Origin: Escherichia coli
GTDB lineage: Bacteria; Pseudomonadota; Gammaproteobacteria; Enterobacterales; Enterobacteriaceae
DNA: 64,000 nt
Direction: 5' to 3' (one strand)
NCBI RefSeq assembly: GCF_041886205.1
Contig: NZ_CP169029.1
Below are positions 3,840 through 34,745 of the stretch, one piece after another. Position 1 is the stretch's first letter, and each line of letters begins with the position of its first letter. Below the pieces are notes generated by a model. That model searched no databases. It worked only from the letters and a program-made list of their open reading frames with translations, and was not told the DNA's origin. A program made the translations under genes and the position numbers.

Positions 3840-6029
3840 ATGCTTTACAAAGGCGACACCCTGTACCTTGACTGGCTGGAAGATGGCATTGCCGAACTGG
3901 TATTTGATGCCCCAGGTTCAGTTAATAAACTCGACACTGCGACCGTCGCCAGCCTTGGCGAGGCCATCGGCGTGCTGGAACAGCAATCAGATCTAAAAGG
4001 GCTGCTACTGCGTTCGAACAAAGCAGCCTTTATCGTCGGTGCTGATATCACCGAATTTTTGTCCCTGTTCCTCGTTCCTGAAGAACAGTTAAGTCAGTGG
4101 CTGCACTTTGCCAATAGCGTGTTTAATCGCCTGGAAGATCTGCCGGTGCCGACCATTGCTGCCGTCAACAGCTATGCGCTGGGCGGTGGCTGCGAATGCG
4201 TGCTGGCGACCGATTATCGTCTGGCGACGCCGGATCTGCGCATCGGTCTGCCGGAAACCAAACTGGGCATCATGCCGGGCTTTGGCGGTTCTGTACGTAT
4301 GCCACGTATGCTGGGCGCTGACAGTGCGCTGGAAATCATTGCCGCCGGTAAAGATGTCGGCGCGGATCAGGCGCTGAAAATCGGTCTGGTGGATGGGGTA
4401 GTCAAAGCAGAAAAACTGGTTGAAGGGGCGATGGCGATTTTACGCCAGGCCATTAACGGCGACCTCGACTGGAAAGCAAAACGTCAGCCGAAGCTGGAAC
4501 CGCTAAAACTGAGCAAGATTGAAGCCACCATGAGCTTCACCATCGCTAAAGGGATGGTCGCACAAACGGCGGGGAAACATTATCCGGCCCCCATCACCGC
4601 AGTAAAAACCATTGAAGCTGCGGCCCGTTTTGGTCGTGAAGAAGCCTTAAATCTGGAAAACAAAAGTTTTGTCCCGCTGGCACATACCAACGAAGCCCGC
4701 GCACTGGTCGGCATTTTCCTTAATGATCAATATGTAAAAGGCAAAGCGAAGAAACTCACCAAAGACGTTGAAACACCGAAACAGGCCGCTGTACTGGGCG
4801 CAGGCATTATGGGCGGCGGTATCGCTTACCAGTCTGCGTGGAAAGGCGTGCCGGTTGTCATGAAAGATATCAACGACAAGTCGTTAGCCCTCGGCATGAC
4901 TGAAGCCGCGAAACTACTGAACAAGCAGCTTGAGCGCGGCAAGATCGATGGTCTGAAACTGGCTGGCGTGATCTCCACGATCCACCCAACGCTCGACTAC
5001 GCCGGATTTGACCGCGTGGATGTTGTGGTAGAAGCGGTTGTCGAAAACCCGAAAGTGAAAAAAGCCGTACTGGCAGAAACCGAGCAGAAAGTACGCCCGG
5101 ATACCGTGCTGGCGTCTAACACTTCAACCATTCCTATCAGCGAACTGGCCAACGCGCTGGAACGTCCGGAAAACTTCTGCGGGATGCACTTCTTTAACCC
5201 GGTCCACCGAATGCCGTTGGTGGAAATTATTCGCGGCGAGAAAAGCTCCGACGAAACCATCGCGAAAGTCGTCGCCTGGGCGAGCAAGATGGGCAAAACG
5301 CCGATTGTGGTTAACGACTGCCCCGGCTTCTTCGTCAACCGCGTGCTGTTCCCGTATTTCGCCGGTTTCAGCCAGTTGCTGCGCGACGGCGCGGATTTCC
5401 GCAAGATCGACAAAGTGATGGAAAAACAGTTTGGCTGGCCGATGGGTCCGGCATATCTGCTGGATGTCGTGGGCATTGATACCGCGCATCACGCTCAGGC
5501 TGTCATGGCAGCAGGCTTCCCGCAGCGGATGCAGAAAGATTATCGCGATGCCATCGACGCGCTGTTTGATGCCAACCGCTTTGGTCAGAAGAACGGCCTC
5601 GGTTTCTGGCATTATAAAGAAGACAGCAAAGGTAAGCCGAAGAAAGAAGAAGACGCCGCTGTTGACGACCTGCTGGCAGAAGTGAGCCAGCCGAAGCGCG
5701 ATTTCAGCGAAGAAGAGATTATCGCCCGCATGATGATCCCGATGGTCAACGAAGTGGTCCGCTGTCTGGAAGAGGGCATTATCGCCACTCCGGCGGAAGC
5801 GGATATGGCGCTGGTCTACGGCCTGGGCTTCCCTCCGTTCCACGGCGGCGCGTTCCGCTGGCTGGACACCCTCGGTAGCGCAAAATACCTCGATATGGCA
5901 CAGCAATATCAGCACCTCGGCCCGCTGTATGAAGTGCCGGAAGGTCTGCGTAATAAAGCGCGTCATAACGAACCGTACTATCCTCCGGTTGAGCCAGCCC
6001 GTCCGGTTGGCGACCTGAAAACGGCTTAA
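3840..6029 (+). CDS. fadB: Fatty-acid oxidation complex alpha subunit (enoyl-CoA hydratase / 3-hydroxyacyl-CoA dehydrogenase) FadB
   Basis: 729-aa product from [22 protein letters not shown]...; the ORF-track start at 3714 is an upstream in-frame extension. Confidence 0.95.
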
Positions 6030-7202
<1,173 letters not shown>

Positions 7203-32660: not shown

Positions 32661-33611
32661 TTACAACCAGTTCTTCCGCTTAAAGTACAGATACGGTGCC
32701 AGGCCCGCGAGTATCATAAAGATAATCGCGCCTGGGTAACCAAAGCTCCACTTCAGTTCCGGCATAAACTCAAAGTTCATCCCATAGCTGGAAGCAACCA
32801 GCGTTGGCGGCAGGAACACGACGGATACCACCGAGAAGATTTTGATAATGCGGTTCTGCTCGATGTTGATAAAGCCCATCGCCGCCTGCATCAGGAAGTT
32901 CACCTTCTGGAACAGAGATTCGTTATGCGGCAGCAGGGATTCGATATCTCGCAGGATTTCACGCGCCTGCTCCAGTTGCCCGCCCGGTAAACGCGCCTTA
33001 CGCACCAGGAAGTTGAGCGCACGCTGGGTATCCATCAGACACAGGCGAACTTTCCAGCCGATATCTTCCAGTTCCGCCAGCGTGGAGAGCGCCTCGTCGT
33101 ACTCATCGCCCTGATGCCCTTCCATAATTACCCGGCTCAACTGCTCCAGATCGCTGTAGATGTTTTCAATTTCATCTGCCAACTGTTCGATTTTGGTTTC
33201 GAACAGATCCAGCAGCAACTCGTAGGCGTTACCGTCTACCATCGACTGGCTACGGGCACGCATACGATACAGACGAAAAGCGGGCAGTTCACGCTCACGC
33301 AGAGTAAACAGACGACCATCACGGATGGTAAATGCCACAGTGGAGTTACCGGCGTGATCTTCCGCATCTTCAAAGAAGAAGAAGGAGTGAATATGCAGGC
33401 CGTCGTCGTCTTCAAAGAAACGTGCCGATGCTTCGATGTCTTCCAGTTCCGGGCGGGTTGCCAGGCTCTGGCCAAGTTCAGATTGTACGCGCAGTCGCTC
33501 GTCGTCGTCCGGTTCGACAAGATCAATCCATACTGCATTTACAAGGGGTTGTGACTCTTCGACTTCCAGCCGGGTCAGTCGGTTATTTTCCAGTTGAAAT
33601 GCGCTCAGCAT
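32661..33611 (-). CDS. corA: Mg2+/Co2+ transport protein CorA
   Basis: 316-aa product from [21 protein letters not shown]... with C-terminal YGMNF motif and 2 TM segments. Confidence 0.96.
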
Positions 33612-33980
33612 GACCGGGACTCCCAATGCTTAAAATATCGGACAGTTCGGTGGGCACACAGAAACAAATTGGGTTTCAGACCATTAAACAGCCTGACTCA
33701 GCGCGACGGGAAAAATTGAGGTCGCTGACAACCGCTAAGGCTATCAGCAAAAAGGGATAGCCTTAGGAGTTGATCCTGGATGACAGGATAGTGAGCCAGT
33801 ATCTACTGGGTGTGTCCAAGGCGAATGTCCTCTTAGAGTGATCGTGCGCGCATGTTACGCCAGCAAAATTTTGCCGTCAACACGCAACAGAACACCACAG
33901 AACAATAGTTGAACTTCGCGCTTTTTGGTACTCGTCAAGGTCGCTAACAGGATAAAAAAATCCCACATCCAGGACCTATA

Positions 33981-34745
33981 ATGGCGCATCGGCTACTCAT
34001 TGGTAAAGGAATGATCACCTTGAATCTCAAACGGATTTTTCTCACCCTCACCTTACTTCCCTTGTTTGCTGTTGCCGCTGATGATTGCGCACTCTCAGAT
34101 CCGACGCTGACCGTACAGGCGTATACCGTTAATCCTCAAACAGAGCGGGTGAAAATGTACTGGCAAAAAGCCAATGGCGAAGCGTGGGGAACGTTACATG
34201 CTCTGCTGGCGGATATGAATAGTCAGGGTCAGGTGCAGATGGCGATGAACGGCGGCATCTATGATGAAAGCTATGCGCCGCTCGGTTTGTACATCGAAAA
34301 CGGTCAGCAGAAGGTGGCGTTAAATCTCGCTTCAGGTGAAGGGAATTTCTTTATTCGTCCTGGCGGCGTGTTTTATGTCGCGGGAGATAAAGTCGGCATC
34401 GTTCGTCTGGATGCCTTTAAAGCCAGTAAAGAGATTCAGTTTGCGGTGCAGTCAGGGCCAATGTTGATGGAAAACGGTGTAATTAATCCGCGTATTCATC
34501 CCAACGTCGCCTCACGCAAAATTCGTAACGGTGTTGGGATTAATAAACATGGGAACGCCGTGTTTTTGTTGAGCCAGCAGGCAACAAATTTTTATGATTT
34601 TTCCTGTTATGCCAAAGCGAAACTGAACGTTGAGCAGCTGCTTTATCTTGATGGCACGATTTCACATATGTATATGAAAGGCGGGGCAATCCCGTGGCAA
34701 CGCTATCCTTTTGTCACCATGATTTCCGTCGAGCGGAAAGGTTAG
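33981..34745 (+). CDS. yigE: DUF2233-family protein YigE
   Basis: 254-aa ORF with N-terminal signal/TM segment; K-12 position between corA and uvrD. Confidence 0.88.
   Translation: MAHRLLIGKGMITLNLKRIFLTLTLLPLFAVAADDCALSDPTLTVQAYTVNPQTERVKMYWQKANGEAWGTLHALLADMNSQGQVQMAMNGGIYDESYAPLGLYIENGQQKVALNLASGEGNFFIRPGGVFYVAGDKVGIVRLDAFKASKEIQFAVQSGPMLMENGVINPRIHPNVASRKIRNGVGINKHGNAVFLLSQQATNFYDFSCYAKAKLNVEQLLYLDGTISHMYMKGGAIPWQRYPFVTMISVERKG

Follow-up and report, generated by a model that had tools for sequence, protein, structure and literature searches.

What fills the long interval that separates corA from its divergent neighbour yigE in Escherichia coli, and does it hold a regulatory leader? Enteric bacteria take up Mg2+ mainly through the channel CorA. 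Within the window (the whole stretch of 64,000 nucleotides of E. coli DNA that was analysed), corA lies on the minus strand at 33611..32661, with its ATG at 33611-33609, and yigE on the plus strand at 33981..34745 according to the RefSeq annotation of an identical E. coli stretch, which also places a small coding sequence, ysgD, between the two genes. From the corA ATG at 33611 and the annotated yigE ATG at 33981, the intergenic gap thus runs over 33612..33980, and its 369 bp agree with the approximately 370 bp between divergent start codons given in the initial annotation of this DNA. Divergent gaps of such size are nothing unusual in E. coli. The 601 bp around the gap are present in 5425 of 5426 complete E. 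coli genomes, and this stretch is at least 99% identical in 5439 of 5443 E. coli records.

The initial annotation saw in this gap enough room for a long corA leader, an expectation that is borne out, and found an Mg2+-responsive structured leader like that of mgtA conceivable. We are highly confident that most of the corA-yigE region is the known regulatory leader of corA, in which a uORF and Rho bring about transcription attenuation in a manner analogous to mgtA/mgtL. Of the 369 bp, the leader takes only ~234, and the other ~135 bp (33846-33980) are the corA promoter plus, presumably, the control region of yigE. Among the best 80 CorA matches in Enterobacterales, yigE was the divergent neighbour in Escherichia only, so that the comparison says little about the yigE side.

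Two further observations concern the surroundings of the gap. On the plus strand, the annotated start codon of yigE (33981) shares bases with a perfect TATAAT (33977-33982), and an in-frame ATG at 34011 would open a protein beginning MITLNLKRIFLTLTLLPLFAVA, which is signal-peptide-like; because of these two features, yigE may in fact start 10 codons downstream of its annotated ATG. For this TATAAT, no -35 was detected, and the orthologues compared came from Escherichia alone. Besides, IncHI1 plasmids such as R27 and pHCM1 carry a 1.6-kb Escherichia-type corA segment, present in 66 PLSDB records, mostly from Salmonella and E. coli. This segment (window 32661-34261, R27 (NC_002305.1) 4620-6220) comprises the whole of corA, the entire gap with corL/ysgD, and yigE up to its nt 281, and it is 98.3% identical to the window overall and 100% identical in the leader. 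These plasmids therefore bring a second corA copy with its native attenuator.

The position of the leader follows from its promoter and transcript start:

33852..33880, minus strand: corA sigma-70 promoter, with -35 TTGACG (33880-33875), a spacer of 17 nt and -10 TAACAT (33857-33852)
33851-33846, minus strand: G+C-rich discriminator GCGCGC, directly after the corA -10
33612..33845, minus strand: corA 5' leader mRNA, ~234 nt, starting at 33844 +/- 1

In a promoter scan of 33400-34200, the corA promoter was the sole promoter-like site. Both GTTGAC and GCGTAACATGCGC (the -10 region with its flanks) are kept upstream of corA in 79 of the 80 Enterobacterales loci with the best CorA matches, and Mg2+ has no effect on the corA promoter itself in E. 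coli (PMC11552253). As for the transcript start, primer oFM4, from the supplement of the E. coli study (PMC11552253), joins PLtetO-1 to ...GAGCAC/GATCACTCTAAGAGG; the 5' base of primer 'corA41-71txR', nt 41, falls at 33803; and a +1 at 33844 agrees with the published termination sites, U211 and G216-U220. By three lines of evidence, the +1 lies at 33843-33845, i.e. with a spread of 1-2 nt, and we infer it to within 1 nt. The E. coli leader primers of the same study (PMC11552253) match the window exactly. Leader positions are hereafter numbered so that nt n corresponds to window position 33846 - n.

Close to its 5' end, the leader holds a short reading frame with its own ribosome-binding site:

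33828..33832, minus strand: corL Shine-Dalgarno GAGGA (nt 14-18), 8 nt upstream of the UUG start
33763..33819, minus strand: corL uORF, identical to RefSeq ysgD (WP_211180520.1), with a UUG start and 18 codons (MDTPSRYWLTILSSRINS), then UAA at 33765-33763

UUG is the corL start codon reported for E. coli (PMC11552253), and translation of YsgD has been detected by initiation ribosome profiling and by tagging (bioRxiv 10.1101/511675; PMC12350097). Among the best 80 CorA matches, 79 loci have the GCGTAACATGCGC anchor, and a corL ORF could be located in 78 of them; it has 18 codons in 72 of these 78 Enterobacterales loci, and 17, 19 or 25 in the others. The N-terminus MD[TA]PS[RKT][YC]WL is common to all 78 loci, and MDTPSRYWL, the conserved N-terminus tested, is present in the window. 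Third positions of codons 1-9 are invariant except in codon 3 (91%), and codons 10-18 vary, with length and stop position fixed. The Shine-Dalgarno bases G14 A15 G16 G17 A18 show no variation in 57 leaders. Such a pattern of constraint agrees with a translated element that works in cis, rather than with an independently functional peptide.

A second frame overlaps corL on the minus strand (33744-33842), and extends over 32 codons from an AUC at nt 4-6 to a UGA at nt 100-102. It is probably the 'CDS177' for which PIRT-seq indicates translation (PMC12350097). In other genera, indels in the 5' leader would disrupt this frame when read from the AUC.

The corA leader is an element already described, in Salmonella in 2015-2017 and in E. 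coli in 2024. In the account of the Salmonella leader given in PMC5314796 (citing Kriner & Groisman, J Mol Biol 2015, PMID 26523680), it adopts two exclusive conformers, contains the corL uORF and undergoes Rho-dependent termination. The placement of these elements in E. coli rests on base identities at the positions mutated in Salmonella, rather than on an alignment. If nt 1 is set at 33845, the E. coli numbering agrees with that of Salmonella for each of these bases as far as nt ~125, and downstream of the stem D loop it is offset by +2. Every mutated base is present in E. coli with a complementary partner; C175-177 of Salmonella, too, have their E. coli counterparts, at the +2 offset. From these identities, we infer that the Salmonella stem positions can be transferred to E. 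coli as follows, the bases mutated in Salmonella being given last for stems A to E:

33760..33822, minus strand: stem A, nt 24-30 (GCCUUGG) with nt 80-86 (CUAAGGC), closing a three-way junction; M1* (G24 C25 C26) / M1 (G84 G85 C86)
33809-33796, minus strand: hairpin A1, inside stem A, nt 37-50
33789-33773, minus strand: hairpin A2, inside stem A, nt 57-73
33722..33750, minus strand: stem-loop B, nt 96-107 with nt 113-124, OFF conformer, rut site exposed; M7/M5, U97/C99 with G121/G123
33729..33772, minus strand: stem-loop C, nt 80-90 with nt 101-111, ON conformer; M1/M2, G84 G85 C86 with G105 C106 C107
33703..33725, minus strand: stem-loop D, nt 121-125 with nt 139-143, ON conformer; M5/M6, G121/G123 with C143/C145 (+2 offset)
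33676..33696, minus strand: stem-loop E, nt 150-156 with nt 164-170, downstream of stem D and of both conformers; Salmonella hairpin 152-172, U152 C153, G155 G156 and U168 C169 mutated (+2 offset)
33671..33757, minus strand: putative rut region, ~nt 89-175, transferred from Salmonella 89-177 (PMC5314796)
33655..33665, minus strand: predicted RNA polymerase pause element, G181...U190 G191, after the consensus G(-10)...Y(-1)G(+1)
33625..33634, minus strand: Rho/NusG-stimulated termination sites U211 and G216-U220, in vitro (PMC11552253), positions assuming +1 = 33844
33609..33624, minus strand: corA Shine-Dalgarno GGGAG (33624-33620) and ATG (33611-33609), both conserved

By joining nt 24-30 to nt 80-86, stem A pairs the start codon of corL with its stop codon. 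Stem C, which is part of the single-sequence MFE fold and could be extended by nt 74-78/113-117, competes with stem A and stem B alike. Stem D uses G121-A124, as does stem B, and masks the pyrimidine-rich rut segment CCUCAAUUUUUCCC. Stem-loop B was flagged as a 12-bp hairpin by the terminator-like scan, together with the CCUCAAUUUU that follows it, in which the U-run begins 7 nt after the stem; no termination is on record at this site. In every 60-nt window of the putative rut region, C equals or exceeds G in number and there are 9-12 YC dinucleotides, a composition compatible with rut function. The UGUUUC..UGUG of the pause element is conserved across the leader alignment; G181...U190 G191 appears equivalent to the major Salmonella pause U192, which would place the E. 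coli pause at U190.

Is this architecture more than a transfer of published positions? The 236-nt leader RNA reaches -76.4 kcal/mol, versus -58.9 +/- 4.3 kcal/mol for 200 dinucleotide shuffles (z = -4.09); the leader is thus better by 17 kcal/mol, and none of the 200 shuffles folded as well. Conservation was evaluated on 80 Enterobacterales corA loci, which correspond to the best 80 CorA protein matches (none from Salmonella) and cover the Enterobacteriaceae, Yersiniaceae, Pectobacteriaceae, Erwiniaceae and Hafniaceae; since loci were chosen via the CorA protein, the set is unbiased as to the leader. The 57 distinct leaders of the alignment share 68 invariant columns. Over nt 1-175, their mean identity to E. 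coli is 83%, compared with 58% for the synonymous third positions in the corA genes of these genomes; conservation of the 3' third of the leader (nt 176-234) is seen within Enterobacteriaceae only.

Both conformers are maintained in these 57 leaders. Pairing amounts to 94.4% for the OFF structure (A, A1, A2, B, E), in which both partners have changed at 8 pairs, and to 95.7% for the ON structure (A1, A2, C with its extension, D, E), in which both have changed at 14 pairs. Slid controls, in which 3' partners were moved by 1-3 columns, were 21-46% paired, and none of 500 shuffles matched the observed pairing percentage, double-change counts or covariation score. Stem by stem, the compensatory changes affect four of the six pairs of A2, U100-A120 of stem B (replaced by C-G, with many G-U intermediates; 93.3% paired), four pairs of stem C (96.9% paired), including C74-G117 to U-A in four leaders, three of the five pairs of stem D (100% paired), e.g. 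GCGAC/GUCGC to GCAGC/GCUGC, and three pairs of stem E (95.1% paired), none of whose pairs is invariant. Stem A is 98.7% paired and almost invariant. Since many paired positions are shared by two structures and a reading frame, they do not vary; covariation is therefore informative for A2, B, C, D and E, and silent on stems A and A1. Without any structure input, RNAalifold predicts A, A1, A2, B, part of D, and E, and this unguided consensus fold recovers the published architecture.

Three variations were noticed among the loci compared. In Yersinia aldovae (L071 949-1203), the corL stop is lost (CUAAGG to CGAAGG), which leaves a corL of 25 codons and a weakened stem A. Serratia sp. Ag1 (L072 878-1203) has a 323-nt leader, with an insertion of ~75 nt ahead of the corA ribosome-binding site, and Pantoea (L067, L078, L081) has an insertion of 20-40 nt between the pause element and the corA ribosome-binding site.

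These results bear on what the initial annotation had proposed for the leader. A transcription start within about 30 nt of the corA ATG and a lack of conserved structure had been named as grounds for abandoning it; the sole promoter lies ~234 nt upstream, in agreement with the primers of published constructs, and the suggested structure prediction with covariation across enterobacteria yielded conserved structure with compensatory changes in both conformers. The likeness to the mgtA leader holds for the presence of structure and, from the literature, for the Mg2+ response, with uORF/Rho attenuation as the mechanism; it does not extend to a match with the Rfam model of the mgtA Mg sensor. Indeed, a cmscan of 33400-34200 at E <= 10 returned three chance-level matches only (mir-76, AaHKsRNA54, sR53), and neither the mgtA Mg sensor (RF01056) nor the M-box/ykoK (RF00380) was matched at this threshold.

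The Mg2+ response, the Rho dependence, the effect of corL and the stems tested by compensatory mutagenesis in Salmonella are experimental results obtained elsewhere, whereas coordinates, ORF, promoter consensus, folding excess and the conservation and covariation of both conformers were computed here. corA was long considered constitutive (PMC11552253). In Salmonella, stem-loop B keeps the rut site (89-177) accessible, which lets Rho terminate inside the leader; corL overlaps stem A, and its efficient translation favours B and termination; and stem-loop E and pauses at U192 and U240 add control, U240 being the U of the corA AUG and a site of both pausing and termination (PMC5314796). Compensatory mutagenesis supports the Salmonella stems (PMC5314796). 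In E. coli K-12, repression of corA by Mg2+ requires the 5' upstream region independently of the promoter (PMC11552253; Vezina Bedard et al., RNA Biol 2024). This repression is modest, ~3-fold between 20 and 50 uM Mg2+, and occurs only at stationary-phase entry; the Rho termination score of corA is 3.3, and Rho/NusG raise termination at U211 and G216-U220, where 3' ends were mapped (~nt 211-220), from 24% to 55% (PMC11552253). Translation of corL and expression of corA are inversely related: changing the corL UUG to AGG derepresses corA, changing it to AUG represses corA, and a corL-lacZ fusion goes up 1.7-fold at higher Mg2+ (PMC11552253). In the Rho R66S mutant, the Mg2+ response of corA is still 2.4-fold, and upon loss of the corL start codon a 1.3-fold response remains (PMC11552253); the latter implies that other factors contribute. 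A 2025 review counts corA among the established Rho-dependent attenuators (PMC12360218).

Taken with the conserved architecture, the mechanism best supported is the published one. In this model, a constitutive sigma-70 promoter starts the transcript ~234 nt ahead of corA, and higher intracellular Mg2+ favours efficient translation of corL. The translating ribosomes prevent stem A from closing and cover the 5' arm of stem C; stem-loop B then forms, and the rut region (~nt 89-175), left single-stranded, lets Rho load and terminate transcription at polymerases paused at ~nt 211-220 and at the corA start codon. With poor corL translation, stems C and D form and hide the rut region, pausing decreases and the polymerase reads into corA. 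Stem-loop E adjusts the site and efficiency of Rho action.

Mg2+ might instead be sensed directly: acting on the RNA as on a riboswitch, it would select A and B without any corL translation, as was first proposed for the Salmonella mgtA leader. The authors of the E. coli study allow for a direct effect of Mg2+ on leader folding (PMC11552253), the conserved three-way junction resembles that of mgtA, and the essentially invariant synonymous positions of corL codons 1-9 imply that the RNA sequence, and not the peptide alone, is constrained. However, changes of the corL start codon act strongly in both directions (PMC11552253), the mgtA Mg sensor and M-box models remain unmatched even at E <= 10, and our literature search found no Mg2+-titrated binding or probing data for corA. 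We consider direct sensing unlikely.

Alternatively, the leader could mainly set mRNA stability, its long helices being cleaved by RNase III, without acting on elongation. Stem C, with 11 bp (extendable to 16 bp), would be a plausible substrate, but Rho ChIP and in vitro termination directly demonstrate an elongation block (PMC11552253), and a leader devoted to stability appears quite unlikely. RNase III cleavage and Rho attenuation are, in any case, mutually compatible mechanisms.

That corL/ysgD would mainly encode a small protein functional in trans, with an incidental RNA structure, is very improbable. Although YsgD is translated and detectable when tagged, and its nine N-terminal residues are conserved, its C-terminal half varies freely at fixed length and stop, the frozen synonymous sites of the conserved half point to a constraint on RNA or on translation kinetics, and corL start-codon mutations act on corA in cis (PMC11552253). 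Finally, the null reading, i.e. back-to-back promoters with an unstructured 5' UTR whose length has no regulatory meaning, may appeal to the ordinary size of a ~370-bp divergent gap taken alone and to the former view of corA as constitutive, but its probability is practically nil, as it is already refuted by conservation far above that of synonymous sites, by compensatory changes in several helices together with the fold z of -4.09, and by the published mutational and Rho experiments (PMC11552253, PMC5314796).

Beyond the uORF- and Rho-based attenuation retained here, the predicted folds hint at pairings over longer distances. Single-sequence MFE and RNAalifold both suggest two such helices (33640-33830, minus strand): nt 16-23/198-206, between the corL ribosome-binding region and the segment just upstream of the 3' U-tract, and nt 50-54/146-150, between a GCUCA in corL and a UGAGU just ahead of stem E. 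They are pairable at 87% and 96%, respectively, across the 57 leaders. They are nearly invariant, or poorly aligned outside Enterobacteriaceae, and double changes occur at one pair only; there is therefore no usable covariation for either helix, and covariation neither supports nor rejects them. A third pairing, between the leader 5' end and the corA Shine-Dalgarno in the E. coli MFE fold, was set aside, its 5' CACUCU being Escherichia-specific.

A leader-spanning helix between nt 16-23 (GGACAUUCG) and nt 198-206 (CGAACUGUCC) may thus exist. Its 3' arm would directly precede the U-tract and the mapped 3' ends (~nt 211-220). If real, this helix could act as a long-range terminator-like or pause-stabilizing hairpin, explain the 24% of Rho-independent termination in vitro, and physically couple corL initiation to the termination zone. 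Separately, the invariant discriminator GCGCGC that follows TAACAT (33846-33857, minus strand) belongs to the block conserved in 79 of the 80 loci. Promoters repressed by ppGpp/DksA typically have G+C-rich discriminators, and this one could place corA under stringent control. We found neither idea in the corA literature, and a search on ppGpp and the corA promoter returned nothing relevant. Taken jointly, the leader-spanning helix and stringent control are a long shot.

Through its uORF and Rho, the corA leader ties Mg2+ uptake to translation capacity. The addition made here is a modest one, namely that at least five Enterobacterales families have retained both conformers, the promoter and corL.

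How does this element compare with known systems? The Salmonella corA leader is the same locus, in which the promoter, the UUG-initiated 18-codon corL, stems A-E, the rut site, the pause and the termination zone map base for base. With its 238 nt, the Salmonella leader exceeds that of E. coli by ~4 nt, of which 2 lie in the stem D loop and 2 near the 3' U-tract; the two otherwise differ in nothing of substance. The E. coli K-12 corA leader has the same sequence as the leader in the window.

Like the corA leader, the mgtA leader with mgtL (RF01056) is long, carries a uORF inside a three-way junction, adopts two exclusive folds and is repressed by Mg2+, and in Salmonella it is subject to Rho-dependent termination as well. 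However, Rfam models detect no homology between the two leaders. corL contains a single proline, whereas mgtL is rich in Pro and acidic residues. Unlike that of mgtA, the corA promoter is not controlled by PhoP; as to Mg2+, only the intracellular ion affects corA, which is responsive to Mn2+ as well. The corA leader is thus one that works like the mgtA leader without detectable homology to it.

The M-box (ykoK) of Firmicutes and mycobacteria is, like the corA leader, a cis-acting RNA located upstream of an Mg2+ transporter that lowers expression at high Mg2+. It binds Mg2+ directly through a defined conserved fold, whereas the corA leader, which has no match to the M-box, acts via uORF translation and Rho. 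Comparable, too, are tnaC-tnaA and other uORF-controlled Rho attenuators, in which, as in corA, a ribosome on a short leader ORF decides on access to rut (PMC12360218). In tna, the stalled ribosome shields rut directly, whereas in corA the ribosome acts indirectly, through the choice of the RNA fold.
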